This document shows positions 201 through 17,293 of a DNA stretch of 17,607 nt, one piece after another. Positions within the stretch are counted from its first letter, which is position 1; each line of letters begins with the position of its first letter. The notes beneath the pieces are model-generated. The model ran no database searches. It was not told the DNA's origin and saw only the letters and a program-made list of their open reading frames with translations. Made by a program: the position numbers and the translations under genes. The DNA is taken from positions 1 through 17,607 of the IMG/VR virus record IMGVR_UViG_2896607866_000008; one strand, written 5' to 3'. Origin of the DNA: a virus. Lineage: Duplodnaviria > Heunggongvirae > Uroviricota > Caudoviricetes.

Positions 201-824
201 TTATTCCACGATAAAATTCCTAACCGAATTCAAATCCTTCAGACTATTCAGCTCTTCCTTCAGCTCCCGCTGACGGCGATAAATCTCATCGTTGCGATCG
301 ACCTGCGCCTGCACCATTGCTGCCGCCAGTTCTTCCAGTTCCGGCATCGACAGTTTCACCTGCTGATTATCGGCATCGCTCCACGCCATATGTGTTTGTG
401 CTGTGACAGATTTTGCCAGCATGACTACCGGGGACAGGCGGCCCAGTGAGTCGGGACCAGCATTCCAGATACGACCGTTCCATTCAAACGTGAACGGCTT
501 CGCCTCCTGTTCTGCGCGCCATGCTTCAATTTCCTGACGTCTGGCCTCTCTGGCCGCTTCCAGCATTTCTGGTGTCACAGTGAATGGGGCTATCTCACCC
601 CATTTGCCGCTTTGCAGTTCCTGCCAGATTTGCTGACCCGTCGGAGCGACATCATCAGCGGTGGCTGTGTAGGGGACTGCCTGGTCCCTGTCGTCAAAAA
701 AAACGTCACAGTCTACTGCGCCACTTTCGGTATAACGGGGATTAATGATTTTTTTAATTTCCACGATGCATTCCTCACGATGTGCGAATAAAAAGCCCGG
801 GCATTGCGCCAGAGACATGTGCAT
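201..824 (-). CDS. Putative phage tail fibre assembly/chaperone-like protein (207 aa)
   Basis: Long ORF immediately downstream of a side-tail-fibre-like gene; acidic coiled C-terminal half typical of fibre chaperones. Not a clear lambda Tfa match, so the family is inferred mainly from position. Start could be M1 or M3. Confidence 0.45.
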   Translation of the reverse strand: MHMSLAQCPGFLFAHREECIVEIKKIINPRYTESGAVDCDVFFDDRDQAVPYTATADDVAPTGQQIWQELQSGKWGEIAPFTVTPEMLEAAREARRQEIEAWRAEQEAKPFTFEWNGRIWNAGPDSLGRLSPVVMLAKSVTAQTHMAWSDADNQQVKLSMPELEELAAAMVQAQVDRNDEIYRRQRELKEELNSLKDLNSVRNFIVE

Positions 825-1128
825 CCGGCACCCCGGACAGGGCGCAATATGACCCCGGTAATGAATGCTCTGAACATCCCGTAATGAAAAATTGTGGGGA
901 TGCTATATACGTTCCGGTGGGAGTACTGGGCACTGAAATCCCCACCGGTCCCAGTCGTGAGCCTCTGTATGACTGCCCCCTGACAAGTCTGATGACTTTA
1001 TCACCGTCAGCTTCTCCCTGGTACGCAACAATAATCAGCCCGCCAATGTCAGGGTCTCCCCATCTGTTGCGGACAGAGCTCGCCACGATTCTGTAAATAA
1101 TATCTTCTGTGGTTATATTTATTTTCAC
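775..1128 (-). CDS. Hypothetical 117-aa ORF with GTG start overlapping the stop of the upstream fibre gene; possibly the out-of-frame C-terminal remnant of a once-longer Stf
   Basis: The ORF begins at a GTG overlapping the TGA of ORF 1125-2039 and ends inside the start of ORF 201-824. No recognisable motif. Confidence 0.2.
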   Translation of the reverse strand: MKINITTEDIIYRIVASSVRNRWGDPDIGGLIIVAYQGEADGDKVIRLVRGQSYRGSRLGPVGISVPSTPTGTYIASPQFFITGCSEHSLPGSYCALSGVPDAHVSGAMPGLFIRTS

Positions 1129-2039
1129 CCAGTCAGTCTGGATATGGGCCAGTAGCAGTAGCGGGTGTGATAAATGGGGCCGTTAATGCCGTAAAAAGTA
1201 AGGGATTTGGCTCTGTACCGCGGTTCTGTTGTCTCAGGGCGTGCATCAGTCCACCGGATGCTGAGCCCCCCTTCAAACCGTGTGTCGGGTATGATGATGC
1301 CGTAGGGGCCAGCAACGGAATATTCACCTGGCAGCGCATTCCTTACCCAGGCCAGGAAATCACTCTTAGTGTCAAAACGGATAACATCTTCAGGCAGAAA
1401 AGCACACCCAAAGCCGAATGCGCCGGGTATCGCCAGACGGCCTTTTGTCCGGTCGTAAATGTCGCTCTGTGCTTCCATCGTGGCCGCACTTTTCAGCCCC
1501 AGATTATCCCGGGACTTCTGTTGTGCCTTTTCGCCTGCTGCTGCGATTTCAGACAGATGGTTAGCCGTTTTCAGGGTGCCGGTCAGCGCAGCATCAATGT
1601 CATTTTTGGCCTGTTCTGCTGCGCGGGCATAACCTGCGGCTGCCGCCACATCCTGCGCCGTCTGCTGTGCGTTTCCGGCTGCGGCCCCGGCGCTCTGCTG
1701 CGCCTGCGCCACCATTTCCTCAAAGCGTTTGACGACATCCGGTTTCAGGTCGCCCTCATCAGGAGCAATCAGAAAGTCATTCAGCGTGCCGGGCTTTGAG
1801 TCCTCATATACAGCAATGTCGCCAACGTTGTACTCGTTGCGCCAGTCCTGTTTCAGATACACACCATATTTTCCAGTCCGCGCATGGAAACAGTATTCAC
1901 CATCGTTTCCTGTCATCACATCAGCAACAGTGTTCATCACCACTTCCGGGGTGTTTACCCGGGATTTCAGAATAATATGGTATCCGGACATGGGGATACC
2001 TGCGCCATCAGTCAGCGCACCTGATATCACTACAAACAT
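1125..2039 (-). CDS. Side tail fibre protein, lambda Stf-type N-terminal domain (304 aa, much shorter than full-length Stf proteins)
   Basis: N-terminus MFVVISGALTDGAGIP...VYEDSKPGTLNDFL matches the conserved prophage tail-fibre N-terminal domain of lambda Stf / Rac StfR (MAVKISGVLKDGTGKP...VYEDSQPGTLNDFL), followed by an Ala/Gln-rich coiled region. Full-length Stf proteins are several hundred residues longer. Confidence 0.65.
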   Translation of the reverse strand: MFVVISGALTDGAGIPMSGYHIILKSRVNTPEVVMNTVADVMTGNDGEYCFHARTGKYGVYLKQDWRNEYNVGDIAVYEDSKPGTLNDFLIAPDEGDLKPDVVKRFEEMVAQAQQSAGAAAGNAQQTAQDVAAAAGYARAAEQAKNDIDAALTGTLKTANHLSEIAAAGEKAQQKSRDNLGLKSAATMEAQSDIYDRTKGRLAIPGAFGFGCAFLPEDVIRFDTKSDFLAWVRNALPGEYSVAGPYGIIIPDTRFEGGLSIRWTDARPETTEPRYRAKSLTFYGINGPIYHTRYCYWPISRLTG

Positions 2040-2062
2040 TGTTTTTCTCGCGATAAATTAAA

Positions 2063-2608
2063 TCAGGAAGAACCTTCCGGAGAGGCGGGCCATTCAATGG
2101 CGTTGTATGAGGATTTATCAGTGATGGTGCTGAAATCCATCGCCTGCAGCGATTTCGCGTAAATACGACAGGCTTTCAGCTTTTCTTTATCTTCGTCGCT
2201 GATTAACCCCAGCAGCAGGTCTTCTTCCCATTCCCCTGTCCGGGCACTGACCTGAGCCAGAAGGGCATCACGCTCATCTTCCGCTTTGAGTCTGTAGTCA
2301 AAGACAAATTCATCATTGCGGTAAAACCAGTAACCCGGCGCGGTAATCCGTCGGTTAGCGGTAATATCAGGAACTTCAATAACACTGGCATTGCGTGGCT
2401 CGATGCCTGTCACATCCTTACCGACCCACACCACGCGACCATCTCCGGTGTAAGCTATTTTTATTGTGTCGCTGGCGAAATTCTTCAGCTCTTCATACCA
2501 GTTTTTTCCGTCTTCTGAAAAAAGCCAGGAGACCGAATATCGTTTTGTCATCTGATATTGTTCTGCTGTTTTCGGATTACCCGCAGTAATATTTTTTAAA
2601 TGCAACAT
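2063..2608 (-). CDS. Tail fibre assembly protein (Tfa family chaperone, 181 aa)
   Basis: N-terminal MLHLKNITAGNPKT...WLFSEDGKNWYEE and C-terminal ...IEWPASP are characteristic of Tfa chaperones (lambda Tfa ends DIEWPALP). It sits directly downstream of the tail fibre gene. Confidence 0.75.
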   Translation of the reverse strand: MLHLKNITAGNPKTAEQYQMTKRYSVSWLFSEDGKNWYEELKNFASDTIKIAYTGDGRVVWVGKDVTGIEPRNASVIEVPDITANRRITAPGYWFYRNDEFVFDYRLKAEDERDALLAQVSARTGEWEEDLLLGLISDEDKEKLKACRIYAKSLQAMDFSTITDKSSYNAIEWPASPEGSS

Positions 2609-2610
2609 TG

Positions 2611-3996
2611 TTAAATACTCGCTACGTTATACCAGGTGCCATTAATCAGTTTTTGCAGTGGTCGGTAATACACACCGTCAACGTTATCCGCTGAGTTACG
2701 GCCGGTATCCGATATCGCCATCCCTGACAGCCCGTGTCCCGAAGGTGCGCAAAATCTCCACGAAACGGTGTTACTGCCGGGGCTGTAATACATTTCATGG
2801 CCATACCGTACATCCTGTACCCCCTCTGTTCGATATTTATAGCGGGCATCGAAGTTTCCGTAATTTAACGGAATTACCTGTCCGTTAACAGTGAACACTA
2901 TGCTGTTATCCGGGTTTCTCTGGCTGAAAAAATGCCAGCCTGAATCATCGCCAAGCTCTGCAACAACAGGCCTGGATGGATTACCCCACAAATAAAACGC
3001 TGCATTTTTCGTGGAGTTGTTGGCGCTGGATAACGTGAATTTTCTGGCAGTTCCGGCCTGAATATTCTTAAAAGCAATAGCCACTCCATTCTGAAAGCGG
3101 AATACACGCTGACTATTAGCATAAACATCCAGAATACCGTCTCCATTCTGTTTAAATCCGGTGTCATTATCACCAAGAACAATTGAATTCCCCCCCAGGG
3201 CGTTCTGAACGCCGATACCCAGCGCACCATTGACCTGCGAACCACCGCCAACAGACACTTTATGCGACATGGATATTTCACCCGTCCGCAAATTAATGGT
3301 GAACGGGCGCAGGGGACCAATATCGCCATTTTCCCCCTGACCTTCACTGGTGGGAATAAGGTGCAGGCACTCTTCCGAACGACGAAAAATCAGGCCAAAA
3401 GCTTCGTTGAAAATCCTCAGCGCATTAACACCACGGATTTTCAGCTCTCCGGTTATTTTATCGCCTTCCCGATGAACATAGCGTTGATCTGACTGCTCTT
3501 TACTGTAAACCTGAAGATTATCCCGTGCCGTCCCTTTATTCTGAAGGTCTGACAGATTGTTCTTCTGCCGCAGGAATATCCTTTTCGGATCCTCAAGAAG
3601 ATTTACCCAGCCCGCACTGTCGGAGCCTTCAGGATCGGTCAGGTTATCGTCTGTGGTATTCAGCCAGACCGCTGTTGTTGCGACTCCGGCGAGAATGGCT
3701 CCTTTTGCATATCCACCAATGGCCCCCGCAAAACCGGCATTATACGTGTACAAACCGCCAGCCTGGGCGAACCGTATTGCTGCGGTAATATCGTACATCA
3801 GACCGTTAAAATCCTTGCCGTGTGGCGGTATACCTCCCGCTGAGACCGCTGTCATGGTCACCGGAGGAAAACCTGAATCATACGCAGCATTACCGCTCTC
3901 TCTGGTCTGCTGTGTCGCCTTGTCCGGGATACGGTTTTTATCTCCGGTACTCGCAAAGGGGACCGCCAGCTGGCGGGGTTTATCACTGGCCTTCAT
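2611..3996 (-). CDS. Tail fibre protein with P2 gpH-like C-terminal receptor-binding region (461 aa)
   Basis: C-terminal block [50 protein letters not shown] ... [11 protein letters not shown] matches the conserved distal tail-fibre domain of P2 H-type fibres as I recall it. Its position between the baseplate I-like gene and Tfa fits. Confidence 0.7.
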
Positions 3997-4587
3997 TACG
4001 GGACTCCTTTAAAACTACTGAAACATAAACACCCGGCGGGGATGGCAGTGCACCCGACGACTGGATAATCGCCAGTTCTGCCAACGAGAGCGCGGACTCA
4101 AAGACGTAACTCATCCTCAGCCCACCATTATTCAGAACATAAGCCCGCCGTTTTTTTCCGAACATAAATCTCAGCATCCGGTTAATATCCGGAACGGAAC
4201 AGTCAGTAATGTTCGACATGGCTTTCATCAGTATCAGCCGCCGGTATACAGCATCAGACAGGTCAACAGTCCGGGTATCCGATTTTCCGTTGTAAAACGG
4301 TGCCTGATTAAACGGACAGGGATCATCCATTACCGGGGTGTCCATCCTGGACTCGCTGAAGCCAGGTAATTAAAATCGTCCTTTACCGTCAGCCGGCGAC
4401 TGACACCCACAATCTTTCCCCAGACATCAAGACCATACTTTTCTGCGGTATCGATGTTCCAGATAAGACCATAAAAATCACTGATAAAACTGTCGGGGGA
4501 AAGCGCTGCGTTAAAGCTGTTAATGAGGGCATTGAGTCGGGGGCTGGCAGCATACTGCGCAAGCACAGTGGCAGCCACATTCTGCAC
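3983..4587 (-). pseudogene. Baseplate/tail protein I-like (Mu gp48 / YmfQ-like), split into 85-aa and 120-aa ORFs by a frameshift near 4330-4345
   Basis: Two adjacent ORFs in different frames overlap by 16 nt; together about 200 aa, the size of YmfQ/gp48-type proteins, and located exactly between the J-like gene and the tail fibre. The upstream frame ends ...SPGWTPR-stop and the downstream frame starts MDTPVMDD. Confidence 0.5.
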
Positions 4588-4588
4588 G

Positions 4589-5830
4589 TTATGCCTCCTG
4601 GAGTTTCACACTGATATCCGACACATCCAGAACCGGAATCTCATCTATCCCGAAAGTGACAGCCGTTGTCCATGACGAACCGTCACGGCTCACAGTAAGG
4701 CCCAGAATATCAATATGTTCCGGATCGGTTTTGTAAATGCCGGCATAGTAGCGCCCGGCAGAGACAACAGAGGCAACCCTTGCCCGCAGACCACCATCTG
4801 TACCATTAAATGCGTCCAGCACGGATTGCTGTACCTGTCGGGTAATATCTGAAGGCAGGTAGTCACTTTTTTTCAGAGTCACACTGACATGCAGACTGAC
4901 GGGTTTGAGTGTCTGCCAGCTGATCACGTATTCAGGATACGGCGGATCGTACTCCTTATCTGCAACAGTGAACGTTGTGTTGCCATTCATATCAATACCC
5001 GGCGGAGCCTTACGCCAGATGGCCGCCGCGATATCTGCCGGGCTGCCGCCGTACACGCCAACATAAAGCGAACCGGGTGTTAATGGATACTGACTGACTC
5101 CGGCTTTTTGTTCTGTTTTTTTCGGATTATGGGTGACGTAAACATCCACCACGTTTTCCACCGTGGAGAGTATTTCACCCCGGATGGCTTCCAGAATATT
5201 CCGGGCATTACGGGCAACTGAATTACGTCGGCGGTTTTCAAAGTCCGCACGGGTTTCCTCATCGCTGCCCGGCACACCGGCACTGGCGTTAGTGACACCT
5301 GACCAGCCAGGTATTGCCTTATAAATTTTATTCAGCGTCCCCACAGGACAGCCGACGGGGCCGGTGGACAAATTCAGAAATACCGCATCAACCTGCCCTG
5401 ATGCGCCGATAGTGACGTCTGACTGACTGACATACTTATAACCGGCCTCATCCTGCGCCATACTGCCCGCCGGGATCAGCGTGCCAACCAGCCCGGTACA
5501 GGTCGCTGTTACTGTCGTACCTGTGGCCCCGCGGCGCTCCAGGAAATAAATCCTGCCTATTGCATCCTGAAAGCGACCACTGGAAAAGTCAGGGTTGATC
5601 TGGTTAACGATATACAGCAACTGATCGTTTTTATCCGCAATAATGGCGCTTTCGCTGGATGCAAGTTGTCCCTGCGGACTGCTCAGACTGGTACTCATGG
5701 CCCCGCCCAGCGCCGCCGAAAAATCAGCAAGCCTGCCGCTCAGAATATCCGCTTCATCCGGCACATTCAGCCCGCTATCCGAAATCTGTACAGCGGGCAC
5801 TGCGGTAGAAAAAGATTTATTTTCACTCAT
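4589..5830 (-). CDS. Baseplate J-like protein (Mu gp47 / P2 gpJ family, 413 aa)
   Basis: Size, position after a W/gp25-like gene and before the I-like gene, and overall resemblance to baseplate J family proteins. ATGA-type overlap with the upstream gene. Confidence 0.7.
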   Translation of the reverse strand: MSENKSFSTAVPAVQISDSGLNVPDEADILSGRLADFSAALGGAMSTSLSSPQGQLASSESAIIADKNDQLLYIVNQINPDFSSGRFQDAIGRIYFLERRGATGTTVTATCTGLVGTLIPAGSMAQDEAGYKYVSQSDVTIGASGQVDAVFLNLSTGPVGCPVGTLNKIYKAIPGWSGVTNASAGVPGSDEETRADFENRRRNSVARNARNILEAIRGEILSTVENVVDVYVTHNPKKTEQKAGVSQYPLTPGSLYVGVYGGSPADIAAAIWRKAPPGIDMNGNTTFTVADKEYDPPYPEYVISWQTLKPVSLHVSVTLKKSDYLPSDITRQVQQSVLDAFNGTDGGLRARVASVVSAGRYYAGIYKTDPEHIDILGLTVSRDGSSWTTAVTFGIDEIPVLDVSDISVKLQEA

Positions 5831-6183
5831 AGCAGTACCGTAAAAATGTCATTATTGGTATCTGTAATACGCAGCACACCTGTTACTGTCCGGGTTTGAT
5901 CAGCTGTGACCAGGCAGACAGCGGCGCTCACGGTCGGCAGTTTAAGTGCTTCCTGTTGCAGAGTGGCATTCACCAGTTGTTTGCCGGGCCAGTGTCCGAG
6001 GATGCGTGGCCAGTAAGGTATGCCAGCCGTTGAGTCGTACCAGCACTCCCCCAGAAAAGTACTGCACGCACACGCCACATCCTGAGCTACCGCATGGGGA
6101 TTATCAGTAATGGCAAGATTTCCGGTATCATCAAGCAGGATATCCCATGTCCCGGTGTCAAGAAGAAGTGATCGTGACTGCAT
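5827..6183 (-). CDS. Baseplate wedge protein (GPW/gp25-like, Mu gp46-like, 118 aa)
   Basis: Small ORF between the spike V-like and J-like genes, 4-nt overlap with the J-like gene; conserved gene order V-W-J-I-H-G. Confidence 0.55.
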   Translation of the reverse strand: MQSRSLLLDTGTWDILLDDTGNLAITDNPHAVAQDVACACSTFLGECWYDSTAGIPYWPRILGHWPGKQLVNATLQQEALKLPTVSAAVCLVTADQTRTVTGVLRITDTNNDIFTVLL

Positions 6184-6195
6184 GTTTTCTCCTGT

Positions 6196-6873
6196 TTACC
6201 GGGGTCCCTGCGTGGTTGAGCCGCCGGACTCAACGCCGCCGTGAACGTGGTTTCCAAAATCAATACCCCCGATGTTCGAACCGCCGGAAAGCCTGGACTG
6301 CCCGGTAACGTCAAGCCCCTTACTGACGGCGGTATCGCCGTTCAGCGCAATTTGTGGTGAATTAACGGTGAAGCTTTTCGGCGCATTAATCACACCCTCA
6401 GGCGCGGATATCTCCACTTTCCAGGGAGATACAATCCGTATCTGGTTGTCATCAAATACCACAAACTGGACGGGATCACCGTTGAGCACGCCACCCAGCC
6501 AGATGGCATCAGCATAATTATGGGTACGCTTTGATCCCGGCATCGCAGCCTGACGCGTGGCTTTTACCGCACTGATATCCCGATCGCAGATGGCAAGAAA
6601 ACCGATATCCCCCACATGTGGCGGCATAATCACCGCATTACCGCCCCCCTGTAGTCGCCATACGGGAATGTTATAAATCACCTCATGTTCAACCGGGGAA
6701 CCGTCTGCTGCAACGCCCATTACCATCGGTCGGGCCTCAATAAATCCCTCTTCCACGGCTACCACCCGTCCCAGAGTGATAAACGCATGACGTCCGAGAA
6801 ACTGCCGCAGCATAAAGTCCTGTGCATTGATTTCGCTGTTCACGTCTGTCGGGTTACTGAGTGGTTGTGCCAT
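6196..6873 (-). CDS. Baseplate spike / assembly protein V-like (Mu gp45-like, 225 aa)
   Basis: Gly-rich C-terminus with HxH motif (GIDFGNHVHGGVESGG) typical of phage central spike proteins; position upstream of the W-like gene. Confidence 0.65.
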   Translation of the reverse strand: MAQPLSNPTDVNSEINAQDFMLRQFLGRHAFITLGRVVAVEEGFIEARPMVMGVAADGSPVEHEVIYNIPVWRLQGGGNAVIMPPHVGDIGFLAICDRDISAVKATRQAAMPGSKRTHNYADAIWLGGVLNGDPVQFVVFDDNQIRIVSPWKVEISAPEGVINAPKSFTVNSPQIALNGDTAVSKGLDVTGQSRLSGGSNIGGIDFGNHVHGGVESGGSTTQGPR

Positions 6874-7723
6874 TTTCTTCAGCCCTCATCATGGTACAGT
6901 TGGAACTCCACGGACCGCCCACGGTTCGCGAAGTAATGGTGTGTATCACCCCTGTGATCGTATAATCGCCCGTCATATCAGGCAGTGACGATTCCAGATG
7001 CGCTGGCCTGCCAGTAAAGAGATCGGGGCAGAATATCGTGGTGGCGCTGAGTCCGGTCATGGTGTAAACCGGATAGCCAGTCAGTCCGTGATCCGGCGAA
7101 ATCAGTACCGGCGGAATATTCCGGTTCTGCCCTTTCGGCCAGATGGTGACTTTCTCCACATTCCCCAGATCAATGTTAATATCGGCGGCTGAAGCGACAT
7201 CCAGCATTTGTTGTACAACATTACCGGAAAAATGCGGGTCAGACAGACTGCGGCTGACCCCCTGGTTTTCAAATCCAAGCCCGACAGTTGACGCCAGCGC
7301 ACGGATAATATCTGCAACCGCAACATCGCCCTTTGCGCTGAAATCTGCCGCCGGCTGATTACGCAGATTAAAATGAATCTGTCCTGTCAGAATGAGCGGA
7401 ATATCCGGCGCCTGGTTGTAGTCGGCGTATGCATCAGTAATATCACCTTCAAAAATAAGCCGCCCGTCGGCCCACAGCCGCATTTTATTTGCGGTACTCT
7501 GCTCCTGTCGCCACACACCGCGCCAGCTTAAATTCGTCATATGCGCCGGTGACATTCCCCAGATATACAGCGTGATTTGTGTACCAGCCACCCCTCCATA
7601 TACGGCAATACTGGCAAAACAGCTTGCGTCGGTAATGGTCAGCATATTGCCCTGGCCATTACCAAACGTTCGTCCGTCTGAAAGAGTGAACTCCACCGTT
7701 ATTTTATGTTGTCTGTAGCTCAT
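6854..7723 (-). CDS. Phage tail/baseplate-associated protein (possible hub-like, 289 aa)
   Basis: Long ORF in the tail module immediately upstream of the spike gene, 20-nt overlap with it. No diagnostic motif recognised; assignment is by context. Confidence 0.4.
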
Positions 7724-8022
7724 ATCAGTTCCTCAGGTAACAGCCAGTAGAGCCGGTACCGGGATCCGAGCCCCCGCCAGTCAGGGTCACTATTCCCCTC
7801 CGTGTCGGTAAAAAACAGGTCCCCCTGAAACGGCAGGTATCCGTACCGGACAATCCGGTTATTATTCAGACACAGCACGCCATACAGGCACGGTTCACCA
7901 TTAACAATGATATCGATATACATCCCCGTAGTACGCTGATTCAGGCGAATGGTGCAGACCTGAGCGCCCAGTGTCACCGTAAACTGCTGGGCTTTAACGG
8001 GAGATAAAACAATTTCCAGCAT
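7720..8022 (-). CDS. Hypothetical phage protein (100 aa)
   Basis: ORF with a 4-nt ATGA-type overlap to the downstream 289-aa gene, suggesting translational coupling. Confidence 0.4.
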
Positions 8023-8288
8023 CAGGTGATCCCCCTGTTCGTGGCGCTTCGTCTGTCAGCGTCTGACGGTTGTGTCACCGACGCCGTAACTGGCTGCGTT
8101 TTAACCGATGCGGCCCCTTTTGCTTTATCGTTGTCCGTGGGAGACGACTTATCCGTACTTCCCACTGACACCTCTCCTGTATTCATTACGGTCTGAAATA
8201 CCGCAGTAACCGTCAGTAAGGTCGGACCACTCATCGTCTTTACGCGGATCGCTACGCCAGTGAAACGTAAACACCGGGATTTTTCCAC
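8022..8288 (-). CDS. Small hypothetical ORF with low-complexity Ser/Thr/Asp-rich tail; start uncertain (M1 8288, M19 8234 or M35 8186)
   Basis: ORF in a different frame overlapping the 3' end of the truncated terminase ORF. It may be a small YmfR-like gene or an out-of-frame remnant. Confidence 0.25.
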
Positions 8289-9018
8289 TGTGCCGCTTCT
8301 GTGCGAAGGGGTTGTTCATACCGTTAACCGATGAGAGATCGATACGACATCGGGTTGTCTGGGAAAGCGCGGCATCAATAAGTAATGGTCGCTGGAGAAA
8401 AGCAGCCTCATCCACAAAATAAAGGGTCGTACGGTCACCACGACCGATATTATCGCCAGCCTCACCTTTGATAACCGCGCCAGTTTCAGGAAACTCAACA
8501 CGCATATATGGCGCGTGCTTCTTCTCGCTCCACGAACCGCGAAACTCTACAGGTAGTGTTTCCACGAACTTGCGCGCCTTCCAGAACAATGCTTTCGGGT
8601 CACCGGTGCTGTCGACGTATTCCTCTTTACGGGAGCCGAAACCGATAACCATTTCTTTGTTGAAGAGACAAAGCGAGCAGGCCAGTCCGATCGCGGTCCA
8701 ACTGAGCCCCATTTCACGGGATTTTTCGGTAATACCATTCTCCCGATTGCTCCAGCGTTTCATAATCCAGTGGATCCACTCCTCCTGCTTAGGGAAGAGT
8801 AAAAACGGAATGGTCACCGGCAGGCCATAATCAATATTACGCGGGTCCGTTGTCATGCCCCAGTCGATAATGAACTGAGCCGGGTTGGTACGGTAAAACT
8901 GTTTTAGTGCAGGCAATATTTCAGGATTCTGGCGAATGCGCTGTAGGCGTTCCATCCGCCATTCAAAAACCATCTGGTAATCAGGATGTTTAAAATCGAA
9001 GGGGAATGGTAACGGCAT
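8149..9018 (-). CDS. Terminase large subunit, N-terminal ATPase domain only (289 aa; nuclease domain absent), likely a truncated remnant
   Basis: Walker-B-like LYFVDEAAF and downstream SSVNG motif typical of TerL ATPase domains. The ORF stops after 289 aa with no nuclease domain, and the next genes are baseplate genes rather than portal/capsid. Confidence 0.55.
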
Positions 9019-9020
9019 AC

Positions 9021-9253
9021 TTAGCCCATCATTTTTCTATACACCTCTGCGGCCTGCTCAGGCGTTAATTTGGTAATTTCTGTTCTGACTGGTCCTCCGT
9101 CAGCGCCAGTCACTTCATTTTTGACGTTGTCTTTAAACGCCTGAACAGAAACATGGCGCCCAAGCAACTCAAGGTTTTTAACCTTATCAGGCCATTTGAT
9201 TTTCTTCAGAAGTGCGGCGCTATCTGCGGATACCATCTCCACGACATCCATTC
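9021..9253 (-). pseudogene. 3' fragment (about 77 codons) of a phage gene upstream of terminase large subunit, 5'-truncated by IS911
   Basis: The reading frame runs from inside the IS911 left end (so the N-terminal 24 codons are IS-encoded) to a stop 3 nt before the TerL start. Identity unknown; a small-terminase or DNA-binding protein is a guess. Confidence 0.35.
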
Positions 9254-9325
9254 TGAAGTGGCACACTGAATTTGGCCACCTGAACAGAGGTGATATGCTC
9301 ACCTCAGAACAACACAGGTGCTCCA

Positions 9326-10494
<1,169 letters not shown>

Positions 10495-10669: not shown

Positions 10670-10972
10670 ATGAGCAGAAAAACCCAACGTTACTCTAAAG
10701 AGTTCAAAGCCGAAGCTGTCAGAACGGTTCTTGAAAATCAACTTTCGATCAGTGAAGGCGCTTCCCGATTATCCCTTCCTGAAGGCACTTTAGGACAATG
10801 GGTTACCGCCGCCAGAAAAGGGCTCGGTACTCCTGGTTCCCGCACGGTGGCTGAACTGGAATCTGAAATTCTGCAACTGCGTAAGGCGTTAAATGAAGCT
10901 CGCCTTGAGCGAGATATATTAAAAAAAGCAACAGCGTATTTTGCACAGGAGTCGCTGAAAAATACGCGTTAA
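10670..10972 (+). CDS. IS600 transposase OrfA (100 aa)
   Basis: MSRKTQRYSKEFKAEAVRTVLENQLSISEGASRLSLPEGTLGQWV...; an A7G slippery run lies near its 3' end. Confidence 0.9.
   Translation: MSRKTQRYSKEFKAEAVRTVLENQLSISEGASRLSLPEGTLGQWVTAARKGLGTPGSRTVAELESEILQLRKALNEARLERDILKKATAYFAQESLKNTR
10921..10928 (+). promoter_or_regulatory. IS600 putative -1 frameshift slippery run (AAAAAAAG)
   Basis: Read directly near the end of orfA, with orfB in the -1 frame downstream; frameshifting is inferred by analogy with other IS3-family elements. Confidence 0.5.
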
Positions 10973-11007: not shown

Positions 11008-11826
11008 ATGTGTCAGGTATTTGGTGTATCCAGGAGCGGTTATTACAACTGGGTACAGCATGAACCCTCAGACAGAAAACAAAGTGATGAGCGGCTAAAA
11101 CTGGAGATTAAGGTGGCACATATCCGCACTCGCGAAACATATGGAACCCGGCGGCTCCAGACGGAGCTGGCAGAGAATGGCATCATCGTTGGTCGTGACC
11201 GACTGGCACGTCTTCGTAAGGAGCTAAGGCTACGCTGTAAGCAGAAACGCAAGTTCAGAGCGACTACGAACCCGAACCACAATCTGCCAGTTGCGCCAAA
11301 TCTGCTGAACCAGACGTTCGCTCCTACAGCACCAAATCAGGTCTGGGTGGCGGACCTGACGTATGTTGCCACACAGGAGGGATGGTTGTACCTCGCTGGC
11401 ATCAAAGATGTTTATACGTGCGAAATTGTCGGCTACGCCATGGGAGAGCGCATGACAAAAGAGCTGACAGGTAAAGCCCTGTTTATGGCGCTCAGGAGCC
11501 AGCGCCCACCTGCCGGGCTAATCCACCACTCTGATCGAGGTTCACAGTACTGCGCATACGATTACCGGGTCATACAGGAGCAGTCTGGTCTGAAAACATC
11601 AATGTCGCGTAAAGGTAACTGTTACGACAACGCTCCGATGGAAAGCTTCTGGGGAACGCTGAAAAATGAGAGCCTGAGCCACTATCGTTTTAATAACCGG
11701 GATGAAGCCATCTCAGTAATACGGGAATACATTGAGATTTTCTACAATCGTCAGCGTCGTCACTCTCGTCTGGGGAATATCTCCCCGGCAGCCTTCAGGG
11801 AAAAATATCATCAGATGGCTGCTTAA
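11008..11826 (+). CDS. IS600 transposase OrfB (DDE domain, 272 aa from first Met)
   Basis: ...NQVWVADLTYVATQEGWLYLAGIKDVYTCEIVGYAMG...HHSDRGSQYCA... typical IS3-family DDE transposase. Confidence 0.9.
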   Translation: MCQVFGVSRSGYYNWVQHEPSDRKQSDERLKLEIKVAHIRTRETYGTRRLQTELAENGIIVGRDRLARLRKELRLRCKQKRKFRATTNPNHNLPVAPNLLNQTFAPTAPNQVWVADLTYVATQEGWLYLAGIKDVYTCEIVGYAMGERMTKELTGKALFMALRSQRPPAGLIHHSDRGSQYCAYDYRVIQEQSGLKTSMSRKGNCYDNAPMESFWGTLKNESLSHYRFNNRDEAISVIREYIEIFYNRQRRHSRLGNISPAAFREKYHQMAA

Positions 11827-12228: not shown

Positions 12229-12384
12229 TTACTCCTCAGGTTCGTAAGCTGTGAAGACAGCGACCTCCGTCTGGCCGGTTCGGATTCGTACCTCGCAGAG
12301 GTCTTTCCTCGTTACCAGTGCCGTCACTATGACGGTTAAACAGATGACGATCAGGGCGATTAACATCGCCTTTTGCTGCTTCAT
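12229..12384 (-). CDS. hokD: Hok/Gef family type I toxin (51 aa), HokD/RelF-like
   Basis: Translation MKQQKAMLIALIVICLTVIVTALVTRKDLCEVRIRTGQTEVAVFTAYEPEE read directly; matches the Hok/Gef consensus and, to my recollection, E. coli HokD (RelF) specifically. Strong SD (AGGAG) 8 nt upstream. Confidence 0.85.
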   Translation of the reverse strand: MKQQKAMLIALIVICLTVIVTALVTRKDLCEVRIRTGQTEVAVFTAYEPEE

Positions 12385-12441
12385 AGCCTGCTTCTCCTTG
12401 CCTTTCGGCACGTAAGAGGCTAACCTACATTTGTGAGACAT
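12229..12441 (-). CDS. Mok-like overlapping reading frame (70 aa, in-frame N-terminal extension of Hok)
   Basis: An in-frame ATG 19 codons upstream of the hok start (MSHKCRLASYVPKGKEKQA-) with a GAGG SD; the same architecture as mokC/hokC, which share a stop codon. Confidence 0.55.
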   Translation of the reverse strand: MSHKCRLASYVPKGKEKQAMKQQKAMLIALIVICLTVIVTALVTRKDLCEVRIRTGQTEVAVFTAYEPEE

Positions 12442-12723
12442 AGATTGGGCCTCAGATTAATGTTAAGCGTCTTGCAGGACGCGTAATGTTAACTGGGGCT
12501 TTTCTCTGTCTGCCTTACAGTGGCATGCCCGAGGCAGACAGCCTCAAGCACCCGCAGCAATCTTACCGATACCGATAAGAAAACGCTATTTTTTATTGCC
12601 AGCACCTTCTATCCAGGCTAATTTATCTGCGTCAGAACGGCGCAATGCGCTCGCCTGAGATACGTTTACTTGCCATGGTAACAACAGGTAACGGCAATTG
12701 CTGTTTCTGTTTTGTTTCCTTCA

Positions 12724-12757
12724 AAAACCCCGGACCATCAATCCGGGGTTTTTGTTT
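12724..12757. terminator. Bidirectional rho-independent terminator
   Basis: AAAACCCCGG-(9-nt loop)-CCGGGGTTTT flanked by A-runs and T-runs on both sides; it lies 2 nt downstream of the 27-aa ORF stop on the minus strand. Confidence 0.6.
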
Positions 12758-12758
12758 G

Positions 12759-12842
12759 TTAACCCCAACGGCAAATCGAATACACCACCAGCGCCACCGC
12801 CATCGCAATTCCTACCGTGGTGAATGCCTCAGGCCAGGTCAT
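12759..12842 (-). CDS. Small hydrophobic peptide (27 aa, MTWPEAFTTVGIAMAVALVVYSICRWG), translationally coupled to the DUF551 gene
   Basis: Not in the ORF track (too short). Its ATG overlaps the TGA of the upstream gene (AATCAATGACC), a GGAGGT SD sits 6 nt upstream, it has a single predicted transmembrane helix, and it is followed at once by a terminator. Confidence 0.35.
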   Translation of the reverse strand: MTWPEAFTTVGIAMAVALVVYSICRWG

Positions 12843-13204
12843 TGATTCACCTCCTGCGGTGGTTCCGGTAGCGGCATCCAGTGAGTTGAGCTCTCTACTT
12901 CAACGCCGTCTTTGTCCACAAAAGCCATCTTATTCCCGCCACGAGTGGGGCAAAAAACCTTATCCCAGGAACCGGGGAATACATTCCCGAGATCATCGAG
13001 AAGAATCACATCGCAATATTCAGCAGGAACTGCATCACTACAGCTTATCCAGCCAGCCAGAGTTACCGGAGAGTTGCCAGCCTTACGCATGGCCATTTCC
13101 ACGATTTCAACCATATCTCCTGGTGGAATTTTACAAAGTTGCCCAATACATTTCTGCTGCCTGGCATATTCGAGAATGTGCTCCAATTTGGTTCGATTAA
13201 TCAT
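12839..13204 (-). CDS. DUF551-family phage protein (121 aa)
   Basis: C-terminal ...THWMPLPEPP motif characteristic of DUF551 proteins of lambdoid prophage early regions; TAATG overlap with the upstream gene. Confidence 0.55.
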   Translation of the reverse strand: MINRTKLEHILEYARQQKCIGQLCKIPPGDMVEIVEMAMRKAGNSPVTLAGWISCSDAVPAEYCDVILLDDLGNVFPGSWDKVFCPTRGGNKMAFVDKDGVEVESSTHWMPLPEPPQEVNQ

Positions 13205-13869
13205 TATTTATCTCCCTTAAGCATGGCAGCGCGGCAGGCGTTCCAGCCATCAACATAATCAAACGTATTACTATCGTTTGGCCCGATTTCATCCGGCACT
13301 ATCGGCTCTGGTTGGATAGTGACGTTGGCAAAGGCAGCACGCAAACCGGTTTTAATTTCTTCGATTTCATCAGAGCCAAGCGATGAATCTGACAGTGCGT
13401 GATGGAATGCGTAAGCCATGTCGTCGTTTACTGCAACCGGCACTGCCGGCGCTGCGTAAAGCGGTGTTATATCTGCCCGAAAATCACATGCTTTATGCAG
13501 TCGTACCCAACGCTCAACTTCCGCTTTGTCAAAATATATAGCAGTGAACGTATTAGATTCCTGGTCAACTTGAGTAAACGTCACCTTCCACGCTACAGCT
13601 ACGGCTTTCCATCCATCAGGTTGTCGCATTCGCGGGGCAGCATAAAGCTCATGCATTCCATCAGGCAGCGAGTGACCCACATACTCACCGAACCCGTCAA
13701 TACACATGCCCCCATCTTCAACAATGCATTCCGCTACAGGCTCTGCTTCCAGTGATGCCAGAGCGATAAGCGCCAGTTCACGAATTTCACCGCCGTCTAT
13801 ATCGTCAATATCATCGCGGCCAGAAATGTTAGCCAGCCATTGCAGTCGCTCTTTGGTAATAGTGGTCAT
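13204..13869 (-). CDS. Hypothetical phage protein (221 aa, acidic, two LYAAP-containing segments)
   Basis: ORF tightly coupled on both sides (ATGA overlap with HNH upstream, TAATG with DUF551 downstream); SD GAAGGGG. No recognisable catalytic motif. Confidence 0.5.
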   Translation of the reverse strand: MTTITKERLQWLANISGRDDIDDIDGGEIRELALIALASLEAEPVAECIVEDGGMCIDGFGEYVGHSLPDGMHELYAAPRMRQPDGWKAVAVAWKVTFTQVDQESNTFTAIYFDKAEVERWVRLHKACDFRADITPLYAAPAVPVAVNDDMAYAFHHALSDSSLGSDEIEEIKTGLRAAFANVTIQPEPIVPDEIGPNDSNTFDYVDGWNACRAAMLKGDK

Positions 13870-14231
13870 GCCGTAGCCCCTTCTTGATATTTTTCAAACC
13901 AGAACACAACCGGGTCAGATTTCATTTCAACCAATCCCATACGAACCAGCGCTTTGCCTTTCCCGGACGCAAGGAATTCACGACGACCATCACTGATAAT
14001 TCGTCGATAATCTTCCAGGCTACTGCAATGCTTGTGCAGATTGCATGGGTGGCATTCTGGTACCATGTTGGATATATCGTCACGTTCCTGGTGAAGCATA
14101 TTTCCATCAAAACGAATGACCGGTTTTACATGGTCTGCATGCCACTTTTCGCCAAGTTCGCAGCCGCAATAAGCGCAGCGACCACCGAACTTCATGCGCA
14201 GTTCTGCACGTTGTTTTTTCGTCAGTGCCAT
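13866..14231 (-). CDS. HNH endonuclease (121 aa from MALTKK; the ORF track shows a longer 151-aa frame from 14321)
   Basis: CAYCGCELGEKWHADHVKPV....CHPCNLHK is an HNH motif with two Cys pairs. The start at 14231 is preferred because of an AAGGA SD and the immediately preceding stop of the 72-aa ORF. Confidence 0.75.
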   Translation of the reverse strand: MALTKKQRAELRMKFGGRCAYCGCELGEKWHADHVKPVIRFDGNMLHQERDDISNMVPECHPCNLHKHCSSLEDYRRIISDGRREFLASGKGKALVRMGLVEMKSDPVVFWFEKYQEGATA

Positions 14232-14232
14232 A

Positions 14233-14451
14233 TCAGCTTTCCTTATACGGATTAATTTTATTGTGCAGTGTGTTGAATGACGCCCATACCACGTCGTTAT
14301 ACAATTCAATAACTGGCTCAATTATTTTTCCGATTATCCAGACAAAAATTAGCGGGGATATCGGTGTCATCAACACGATAAACAGAATGAGAAACAGGAA
14401 TTCTGTTGTTCTACTCTTTCGCGGATATTTTTTTCTAAATAATGTAACCAT
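14233..14451 (-). CDS. Small predicted membrane protein (72 aa), coupled to the HNH gene
   Basis: Hydrophobic stretch FLFLILFIVLMTPISPLIFVWIIGKII; its stop is 1 nt before the HNH ATG. The SD is weak, so coding status is uncertain. Confidence 0.35.
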   Translation of the reverse strand: MVTLFRKKYPRKSRTTEFLFLILFIVLMTPISPLIFVWIIGKIIEPVIELYNDVVWASFNTLHNKINPYKES

Positions 14452-14777: not shown

Positions 14778-15931
<1,154 letters not shown>

Positions 15932-16000
15932 TGGAGCACCTGTGTTGTTCTGAGGTGAGCATATCACCTCTGTTCAGGTGGCCAAATTCAGTGTGCCACT

Positions 16001-16857
16001 TCAGGTATTTGGTGTATCCAGGAGCGGTTATTACAACTGGGTACAGCATGAACCCTCAGACAGAAAACAAAGTGATGAGCGGCTAAAACTGGAGATTAAG
16101 GTGGCACATATCCGCACTCGCGAAACATATGGAACCCGGCGGCTCCAGACGGAGCTGGCAGAGAATGGCATCATCGTTGGTCGTGACCGACTGGCACGTC
16201 TTCGTAAGGAGCTAAGGCTACGCTGTAAGCAGAAACGCAAGTTCAGAGCGACTACGAACCCGAACCACAATCTGCCAGTTGCGCCAAATCTGCTGAACCA
16301 GACGTTCGCTCCTACAGCACCAAATCAGGTCTGGGTGGCGGACCTGACGTATGTTGCCACACAGGAGGGATGGTTGTACCTCGCTGGCATCAAAGATGTT
16401 TATACGTGCGAAATTGTCGGCTACGCCATGGGAGAGCGCATGACAAAAGAGCTGACAGGTAAAGCCCTGTTTATGGCGCTCAGGAGCCAGCGCCCACCTG
16501 CCGGGCTAATCCACCACTCTGATCGAGGTTCACAGTACTGCGCATACGATTACCGGGTCATACAGGAGCAGTCTGGTCTGAAAACATCAATGTCGCGTAA
16601 AGGTAACTGTTACGACAACGCTCCGATGGAAAGCTTCTGGGGAACGCTGAAAAATGAGAGCCTGAGCCACTATCGTTTTAATAACCGGGATGAAGCCATC
16701 TCAGTAATACGGGAATACATTGAGATTTTCTACAATCGTCAGCGTCGTCACTCTCGTCTGGGGAATATCTCCCCGGCAGCCTTCAGGGAAAAATATCATC
16801 AGATGGCTGCTTAAAAAAAGAACAAATGGTAGTGTCCGCTATTGCCAGTACACCTCA
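16001..16857 (+). mobile_element. IS600, 5'-truncated partial copy (lacks about the first 408 bp including the left end and orfA); junction with the IS911 left end at about 16001-16003
   Basis: Sequence from GGTATTTGGTGTATCCAGGAGCGG onward is co-linear with copy 1 from 11013 onward; the right end ...GTACACCTCA is at 16857. Confidence 0.85.
16004..16814 (+). pseudogene. IS600 orfB lacking its orfA partner and frameshift context (the ORF-track protein MAKFSVPLQ... has an IS911-derived chimeric N-terminus)
   Basis: The OrfB sequence is identical to copy 1 from QVFGVSRSGYY onward; the upstream 26 nt of the ORF belong to the IS911 end. Confidence 0.7.
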
Positions 16858-17293
16858 GGACGCCTGCATCAAAACGTTCAGAAACGACATCGGTCAAACC
16901 ATAATCAATGGTAAGCTGAATATCAATTTCAGGATGCGATTTCAGGAATGTGCGCATGGCTGGTAACAATATCGTTTTTGCTGCATGTTCTACAGTAGTA
17001 ATACGTATTGTCCCGGATGGGCGGTTCTGCAGATCGCTCAGGGATGTCAGGGCAGAATCTATGTCATGCAATATAGGGCCAAGAACAGACAAAAGATGCT
17101 CGCCCGCTTCAGTGGGTACAACGCTGCGCGTGGTTCGCGTCAGAAGCCGCAATCCCAATCGTTCTTCTATACGGCGCACTATCTGGCTTAAAGCTGACTG
17201 CGCCATGCTCAGGCGGGCTGCTGCGCGAGTGAAGCTACGCTCCTCTGCAACGACGACAAACGCCATCAGATCAGCGATTTCTTCACGCTTCAT
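16858..17293 (-). pseudogene. LysR-family transcriptional regulator, 3'-truncated by the IS600 insertion (about 145 native codons remain)
   Basis: N-terminal HTH MKREEIADLMAFVVVAEERSFTRAAARLSMAQSALSQIVRRIEERLGLRLLTRTTRSV is the classic LysR signature; the frame runs into the IS600 right end at 16857, giving a chimeric tail. Confidence 0.75.

Follow-up and report, generated by a model that had tools for sequence, protein, structure and literature searches.

A phage-borne 27-codon reading frame that probably encodes a membrane microprotein and keeps its own start/stop junction

The window analysed here is the whole stretch of 17,607 nucleotides (nt) of the IMG/VR virus record IMGVR_UViG_2896607866_000008 (Caudoviricetes). 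On its minus strand it contains an open reading frame (ORF) of only 27 codons, whose start codon overlaps the stop codon of a DUF551 gene. Judged by its conservation in related phages and prophages, this ORF is probably real and translated, and its product would be a single-pass inner-membrane microprotein of 27 residues from a phage-borne family, called the WPEAF family here. The initial annotation had proposed a real, translationally coupled gene for a small membrane peptide, and this interpretation is supported by the conservation test and by the geometry of the coupling. The ORF and its surroundings comprise the following features:

12759..12842, minus strand: microprotein coding sequence of 27 codons, an ATG to TAA ORF with the TAA included in the coordinates, product MTWPEAFTTVGIAMAVALVVYSICRWG
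12839..12842, minus strand: ATGA start/stop overlap (ATG 12840-12842, TGA 12839-12841), the putative termination-reinitiation junction
12849..12854, minus strand: Shine-Dalgarno (SD) sequence GGAGGT within the last codons of the upstream gene, with a spacer of 6 nt (GAATCA) to the ATG
12839..13204, minus strand: DUF551 gene upstream of the microprotein, 121 amino acids (aa), Pfam PF04448 with E=3.4e-19, a DUF551 protein in RefSeq
12722..12754, minus strand: terminator-like hairpin with a CCCCGGA-N7-UCCGGGG core between an A-run and a U-run
12229..12553, minus strand: hok/mok/sok type I toxin-antitoxin locus, a neighbour only, with the mok/hok ORF at 12229-12441 and sok (Rfam RF01794, 118 bits) at 12379-12553

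With the exception of one distance, the local details of the initial annotation agree with the sequence. The SD sequence 6 nt before the ATG can be read from it directly, the overlap of the ATG with the upstream stop codon was confirmed, and the proposed distance of about 320 bp to hok corresponds to the 318 nt by which the mok/hok ORF lies beyond the microprotein stop. The terminator that had been placed 2 nt after the stop is present as a strong hairpin, but the distance is 4 nt to its extended A/U stem and 10 nt to its G+C core. The hairpin folds with -23.7 kcal/mol compared to -11.8 +/- 2.5 kcal/mol for shuffled sequences (z=-4.8) and, given the A-run on one side and the U-run on the other, could possibly act as a bidirectional terminator. 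In the terminator scan it appeared on the plus strand only, and the U5 run on the minus strand was read by eye. A terminator-like hairpin is found within 90 nt of the ORF at only 22 of 162 family sites; the hairpin is specific to the context of the window and not a feature of the family.

Conservation of the reading frame

IMG/VR was scanned with two degenerate DNA patterns, each of which fixes only one end of the peptide: an N-terminal pattern, M-x-WPEAF-xx-VG, and a C-terminal pattern, VYSICRWG. The N-terminal pattern matched 125 sites, and nearly all of the respective ORFs have 23-29 codons, most of them exactly 27. The C-terminal YSICRWG was recovered with this pattern although it had not been specified. 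Conversely, about 125 of the 131 sites matched by the C-terminal pattern have an ATG or GTG exactly 19 codons upstream together with W-P-E/D-A-F/L/I. Of about 180 IMG/VR sites, about 95% retain the start, the reading frame, the length, and the stop, and the position of the stop is fixed while the stop codons and the flanks differ among the copies.

The ratio of nonsynonymous to synonymous polymorphisms (pN/pS) was taken from that part of the ORF which is not constrained by the respective search pattern. It is 0.42 in the microprotein frame with both pattern sets, whereas values of 0.90-0.93 and 1.77-1.96 are obtained for the remaining sense frames. Subfamilies differ from each other mostly at third codon positions (e.g. 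3/2/13, 5/3/16, and 6/3/13 for the first, second, and third position), and the replacements are conservative (I/V, A/V, L/F, M/I). Of 86 unique sequences, 85 have an open sense frame, while the +1 and +2 frames are open in one and three of them, respectively. We conclude that the ORF has most likely been kept by purifying selection at the protein level, and that the 27-codon frame is very probably a real gene in many prophages of Escherichia coli, Shigella, and Salmonella, that of the Shiga-toxin phage 933W among them. The ORF exceeds what chance would produce because it is conserved across the family, not because of the window alone. In frame, ends, and synonymous excess it displays the protein-coding conservation looked for in a microprotein of at most 50 aa. 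Conservation of the frame in homologous regions was also the check that the initial annotation had suggested, and the ORF has passed it.

The start/stop junction and the predicted membrane helix

In all 117 complete contexts the stop codon of the preceding gene is located at -7 to +1 of the microprotein start (92 ATGA, 24 TGATG or TAATG, and one at -7). An SD core of at least 4 nt (GGAG or GAGG) is present at -16 to -4 in 59 of the 63 unique upstream contexts, and even distant members from phages with 40-65% G+C have retained the start/stop overlap. The upstream genes are mutually unrelated and comprise DUF551, Ea22/EaA-like, 933W L0139, DUF669, and DHH/DHHA1 phosphoesterase genes as well as several unknowns. 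Coupling to the DUF551 gene, as initially annotated, is correct with respect to the geometry, which is universal, but it concerns whatever gene sits upstream and not DUF551 specifically. The start that overlaps or abuts the upstream stop and the SD sequence inside the upstream coding sequence are the geometry of coupled cistrons, and we infer that translation of the microprotein probably depends on termination-reinitiation from the upstream gene. A ribosome ending the upstream gene at the UGA would restart at the overlapping AUG, aided by the GGAGG in the last upstream codons; in the window, the microprotein start would be fed by the ribosome terminating on the DUF551 gene. The junction also explains two peculiarities of the encoded proteins. 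The second residue of the microprotein is T, S, or N in nearly all cases (codon 2 at 12837-12839 in the window) because the ATGA overlap demands codons starting with A, and unrelated upstream proteins end in ...E-V-x-x or ...E-D-x-x-x (12843-12857 in the window) because the GGAGG of the SD sequence is read as Glu-Val or Glu-Asp.

The 170 sites with enough flanking sequence fall into 28 upstream and 28 downstream sequence classes that occur in 70 combinations. In addition, many of the matches found with blastn in E. coli genomes begin at the first base of the ORF and end within 3 nt of its stop (query 29 to 110-115). The ORF appears to reassort as a self-contained module, and since this downstream cistron keeps the junction while the upstream partners are swapped, the junction would act as part of the microprotein's own module. 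Gene pairs coupled by termination-reinitiation, reportedly treated by Huber et al. 2019, share the ATGA or TGATG overlap and the SD sequence inside the upstream gene. However, the microprotein cistron differs from these pairs in retaining the junction across the 28 upstream classes. In some database entries (P0115 with 143 aa, P0119 with 206 aa, P0102, P0103, P0114) the microprotein forms the C-terminal end of an upstream protein, Ea22-like or other; these entries could be natural in-frame fusions, frameshifts, or extensions by gene callers.

The family consensus is M-[T/S/N]-W-P-E-A-F-x-x-V-G, followed by a hydrophobic helix and Y-S-I-C-R-W-G. The summed apparent free energy (dGapp, Hessa scale) of the hydrophobic residues 6-24 is about +0.2 kcal/mol, with values of -1.1 to +1.0 kcal/mol for the closer relatives tested and less favourable values for two distant members. 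Both the hydrophobic segment and the asymmetry of the charges are those of a single-pass membrane microprotein of at most 50 aa. According to the positive-inside rule, the peptide would be oriented N-out and C-in, with the Glu5 end in the periplasm and the Arg25 end in the cytoplasm. Conservation among 52 peptides is highest for G11 and R25 (50 each), E5, A15, and A17 (49 each), followed by A13 (43). G11, A13, A15, and A17 form two small-xxx-small motifs, which are typical of helix-helix packing, and W3 and Y21/W26 are found at the usual positions of interfacial aromatic residues. The conserved features that are not generic thus seem to be the W-P-E-A-F cap and the small residues 11, 13, 15, and 17. 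The peptide would insert as a single helix with residues 6-24 across the inner membrane, and the WPEAF cap and the small residues would pack this helix against another transmembrane helix, either of a host or phage membrane protein or of further copies of the microprotein itself.

Matches to curated families stay below the cutoffs, with 14.7 bits for KdpF (TIGR02115, cutoff 26.85, E=0.02) and 14.0 and 13.4 bits for the DUF883_C glycine-zipper anchor (PF19029, cutoff 27, E=0.04). These weak similarities reflect the same character of the helix. Variants of 29, 31, 33, and 35 aa contain in-frame expansions of the hexanucleotides GCGATG or GCGGTG within the transmembrane helix (...GIAMAMAMAMAMAVALVV...; P0067, P0074-P0078, P0080, P0082, P0083, P0085), and the length of the helix apparently varies through repeat slippage.

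The hok neighbourhood and the possible function

The hok gene is found on the same strand within 900 nt downstream of the microprotein in 70 of the 162 family sites, and 57% of the sites do not have hok nearby. The closeness to hok that had been noted in the window is therefore recurrent but not obligatory; the link is real as a pattern. One and the same conserved microprotein-hok junction stands behind at least ten different upstream classes, with the hok promoter, as identified by eye, starting about 7 nt after the microprotein stop. In phage 933W the microprotein is located immediately upstream of hokW. Other downstream contexts are ParDE/RelE-type toxin-antitoxin modules, DUF4222 genes, xis/int, and terminators, and most simply this variety would mean that the ORF often lies where an operon segment ends and morons insert. 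In ArgO145 and pSTEC411_1, ParD and ParE/RelE follow the microprotein on the opposite strand. Besides the IMG/VR family sites, the recurrence of toxin-antitoxin modules directly behind the ORF was noted at L003 2709-3220, L213 1409-1971, and L210 2937-3211.

The initial annotation had left the choice between a small membrane-active toxin and a regulatory microprotein. Like the Hok/Gef toxins, for example hokW of 933W and Sp5, the product is a small, hydrophobic, prophage-borne single-helix peptide, and it often adjoins hok. Unlike them, it has about half the length and is not accompanied by a mok-like leader, a fold-back mRNA, a Sok-like antisense RNA, or an own promoter. When five family members were compared with Pfam at E<=10, none matched PF01848 (Hok_Gef), and the only database match that does bear PF01848 is a chimeric read-through (P0099). 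The sole Rfam gathering match in the window is sok, outside the ORF, and no antisense RNA was found over the ORF itself. Promoter-like sites were not detected between 12100 and 13300. Thus, the toxin half of the proposal finds no support in Pfam domain, antisense RNA, or promoter and leader ORF, and a regulatory or accessory role would fit better. Phage holins and pinholins were also considered and rejected: in the contexts examined (FDAARGOS_944, VT1-Sakai, PhiR12_1, and 933W) the ORF is located outside the lysis cassette and not beside holin and lysozyme genes.

It is nevertheless conceivable, although unlikely, that the peptide is a membrane-damaging killer in the manner of a type I toxin, Kil, or a viroporin. 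It would then oligomerise via its small-xxx-small face and depolarise or permeabilise the inner membrane on induction, possibly together with Hok. Its size, its hydrophobicity, and the aromatic and basic C-terminus are compatible with such an activity, as are the glycine-zipper-like pairs G11/A15 and A13/A17, the weak similarity to DUF883_C, and the frequency with which hok follows. In addition, RecA-dependent induction of Sp5 leads to the production of HokW, which promotes the release of the phage (PMC8621323), and it is hokW that directly follows the microprotein in 933W. However, a killer peptide is hard to reconcile with the missing Hok/Gef domain, antisense RNA, and promoter, with coupled expression within operons, which is unlike known type I toxins, with the many sites devoid of hok, and with an ORF that is intact in one third of the E. 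coli genomes, decayed prophage remnants included, without a dedicated antidote nearby. Given the role of HokW in induced phage release, there is a small chance that the two peptides are functionally related. In this very unlikely case the microprotein and Hok would constitute a two-peptide membrane module of Shiga-toxin (Stx) and lambdoid prophages, in which the microprotein is co-transcribed into the hok locus at induction and tunes Hok in its timing, insertion, or neutralisation while the phage is released, and the WPEAF family would have one conserved inner-membrane target across several proteobacterial groups. Such a module, if true, would explain why the junction with hok is conserved behind so many different upstream genes.

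Two further explanations dispense with the peptide altogether. The act of translation might be all that matters, either as a ribosome relay to the downstream gene or as a leader modulating the hairpin 4 nt downstream. In the window the stop indeed precedes the hairpin by only 4-10 nt, and in dozens of contexts the next gene (DUF4222 or a gene beginning MGKITFVVEF) follows at 2-4 nt from the stop or overlaps with it. However, this is highly improbable given that the conservation concerns the amino-acid sequence and comes with an excess of synonymous changes, that the WPEAF..VG motif persists in phages of 40-65% G+C, and that the downstream partners belong to 28 unrelated classes. A leader peptide or attenuator was rejected as a general explanation, as a hairpin is available at only those 22 of 162 sites. 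The least probable of all explanations is a fortuitous ORF that merely overlies a non-coding DNA or RNA element, such as a lambdoid recombination junction or the upstream part of hok, or a gene on the opposite strand. The block often abuts the hok promoter region, and antisense frames are open over the 84 nt in 70 and 81 of the 86 unique sequences. A non-coding element would explain neither the bias towards third positions nor the closed other sense frames nor the ATG and the stop that are fixed despite differing stop codons and flanks; in addition, no Rfam family covers the ORF, and the block occurs without hok at more than half of the sites. The boundaries of the antisense ORFs shift with the context, from -240 to 0 at one end and from +60 to +420 at the other, and because the ends drift by hundreds of bases between contexts the antisense gene was rejected. 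In the window, the antisense ORF 12817-13200 is a shadow of the Pfam-supported DUF551 gene.

A coding microprotein gene of the WPEAF family is therefore the preferred explanation, against which several points have to be weighed. About 5% of the copies are degraded: about six of the 131 sites matched by the C-terminal pattern are affected, one of these natural copies by an in-frame stop and the others by loss of the start or by insertions or deletions. The pN/pS of 0.42 is only moderate; it was pooled from pairwise comparisons among related sequences and takes no phylogeny into account, and the patterns used to gather both sequence sets already assume part of the peptide. In the wobble-aligned antisense frame the pN/pS is even lower (0.36), which is, however, an expected artefact because the wobble-aligned frame of any coding region gives a low ratio. 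The peptide is absent from the supplements of a ribosome profiling study of Sakai (PMC5597208), in which the cultures were uninduced. The hexanucleotide expansions imply that the length of the helix is only loosely constrained, and no promoter was found near the ORF, whose block is flanked by insertion sequences (IS) in the window. Finally, topology, partner, and phenotype have been deduced purely from the sequence.

The microprotein gene would be expressed only with the operon of its phage, namely from accessory early operons of temperate phages, as it has no promoter of its own. Concerning its role, the missing regulatory hallmarks of type I toxins and the intact copies in many decayed prophages without an antidote favour an accessory over a killer function. 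With due reserve, it could be possible that the microprotein modulates an inner-membrane protein during lytic development rather than acting as a Hok-like addiction toxin. AcrZ, MgrB, MgtS, KdpF, CydX, and PmrR are small single-pass inner-membrane regulatory proteins of E. coli. The microprotein resembles these proteins in having at most 50 aa, one transmembrane helix, interfacial aromatic residues, and a basic cytoplasmic end, in having been missed by annotation, and in being under purifying selection. It is, however, not related to them in sequence, and in contrast to them it is phage-borne, modular, and always start/stop-overlapped with the preceding gene.

Annotation, distribution, and genomic setting

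The ORF had been described as unannotated, which is true for every RefSeq/PGAP and phage record inspected, but the exact peptide does exist in GenBank. PGAP/RefSeq does not call it in E. coli FDAARGOS_944, which has a near-identical locus, or in three other E. coli records, and it is also not called in the records of the phages ArgO145, Min27, TH18, 933W, VT1-Sakai, and PhiR12_1. In GenBank, the exact 27-aa peptide is found as "hypothetical protein" or "bacteriophage protein" (e.g. AOM45384.1), and a close variant, MSWPEAFSNVG..., as BAI35516.1. The microprotein has occasionally been called by submitters to GenBank but has never been named or studied. A full-text literature search with the peptide strings found no paper. 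The peptide string is absent from the supplements of a survey of the microproteome of Enterobacteriaceae, "The Cryptic Bacterial Microproteome" (PMC11188072), and nothing above threshold was found for the microprotein in Pfam, NCBIfam, PHROGs, PADLOC, and PDB, the best sub-threshold matches being phrog_4612 (E=0.019), DUF7512 (E=0.007), and DUF883_C (E=0.04). The WPEAF motif is also absent from Rac, Qin, DLP12, and e14, the four lambdoid cryptic prophages of K-12 that were scanned, and therefore small-protein screens and the literature on K-12 have missed the microprotein. Fragments of 25-28 aa of the microprotein are named "DUF551 domain-containing protein, partial" at NCBI (P0042, P0044, P0046, P0052, P0070, P0086), and clusters at 90% identity combine the microprotein with genuine DUF551 proteins. 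The name looks like an artefact that has been passed on between records.

With the ORF segment and its short flanks as query, blastn gave a match in 1721 of 5426 complete E. coli genomes, at up to seven places per genome. Matches were also obtained in 94 phage records, including 933W, VT2-Sakai, VT1-Sakai, Min27, BP-4795, ArgO145, and the PhiR12 phages, and in 181 plasmid records, most of them non-mobilizable, from E. coli, Salmonella, and one Klebsiella. Among the plasmid matches listed many have 90-102 kb, and E. albertii and E. fergusonii are present as well; by their size, most of the plasmid records are read as phage-plasmids. Shigella flexneri is among the pattern matches. Divergent members, for example MNWPEAFAYVGIAFAIAWALRNI, MGWPEAFASVGGGICFVAFAYVLCRYF, and MTWPEAFCSVGWAAALASTAWALAWWAKR, are encoded in IMG/VR contigs of 40-65% G+C, all with the start/stop overlap. 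Further relatives were sought with a natural 40-aa read-through variant as query. A profile search of 1.84 billion representatives resulted in 53 proteins at E<=0.001, and the 22 of these that were inspected are all short peptides or read-through or frameshift fusion calls.

A scan of one genome per species gave 19 matches compared to about 17 expected by chance, according to a rough estimate. Short transmembrane ORFs were accepted from Escherichia, Shigella, Izhakiella, Sphingobium, and a metagenome-assembled genome (MAG) of the Pseudobdellovibrionaceae, with the last two being provisional members; the remaining matches look like chance. Two tiny contigs, from Xanthomonas pisi (431 bp, L136) and Acinetobacter idrijaensis (369 bp, L143), carry variants identical to those of E. 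coli Stx phages or Escherichia, and the "Actinobacillus phage" record PP818812.1 carries a peptide identical to that of the window. These non-enteric records probably reflect E. coli contamination or mislabelling.

The position of the ORF differs between phage genomes. In FDAARGOS_944 it belongs to the early region, with the replication genes on one side and a Q-like antiterminator gene on the other, and in VT1-Sakai and PhiR12_1 after ea22/DUF551-type genes just before xis/int, in the distal part of the leftward block. In 933W the ORF is found beside hokW near attR. The window ORF, like that of FDAARGOS_944, would belong to the early region on the PR side. The remaining features of the window are:

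~12229-14321: block of HNH, a 221-aa ORF, DUF551, the microprotein, and hok, an early-region remnant
9655-10494 (plus strand), 10670-10972 and 11008-11826 (plus strand), 14778-15602 (minus strand), 15978-16814 (plus strand): four sets of IS3-family transposase genes (HTH_Tnp_1, HTH_21, rve)
201-9628, minus strand: myovirus-type tail and baseplate run (tail fibre N-terminal domain, Caudo_TAP, DUF2612, Baseplate_J, gpV apex, E217 gp41-like hub, Pam3 gp18-like plug)
16811-17293, minus strand: 160-aa ORF with a LysR HTH and the first about 60 of 209 positions of the substrate-binding domain

The block looks like an isolated lambdoid early-region remnant of about 3 kb that is boxed in by IS3 elements in an IS-rich, Shigella-like genome, and the DUF551 proteins identical to that of the window are labelled Shigella. 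Because the remnant is boxed in by IS3-family elements, the intact copy in the window may currently be silent. The tail and baseplate run is not part of the lambdoid remnant but of another prophage module, and the ORF at 16811-17293 looks like the remainder of a LysR-type regulator gene that was cut short at the neighbouring IS element.

Surveys of Enterobacteriaceae and microbiomes have predicted many hydrophobic microproteins (Fesenko et al. PMC11188072; Sberro et al. bioRxiv 10.1101/494179; GMSC PMC11364881). Like these, the microprotein is intergenic according to RefSeq, hydrophobic, with a predicted transmembrane helix, under purifying selection, and without a known domain. In contrast, the obligatory start/stop overlap, the WPEAF motif, and the behaviour as a phage module are not described there. 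It is an unnamed family within a known class, the transmembrane microproteins of phages and prophages that annotation has missed, and what sets it apart is mainly how common it is and that it brings its own reinitiation junction to many different upstream partners.

Should the gene be real, a protein of about one third of the complete E. coli genomes is absent from the RefSeq annotation, and this protein is carried by the medically important Shiga-toxin phages 933W, Sp5/VT2-Sakai, VT1-Sakai, and BP-4795 as well as by many phage-plasmids. The analysis also exposes the annotation artefact by which fragments of the peptide have become partial DUF551 proteins. The family offers a genetically tractable test case, with PhiR12 and MG1655-Sp5 growing on K-12, whose own lambdoid prophages lack the motif. 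It opens the questions of which role transmembrane microproteins have in phages, and of a gene that carries its own reinitiation junction while swapping its upstream partners.

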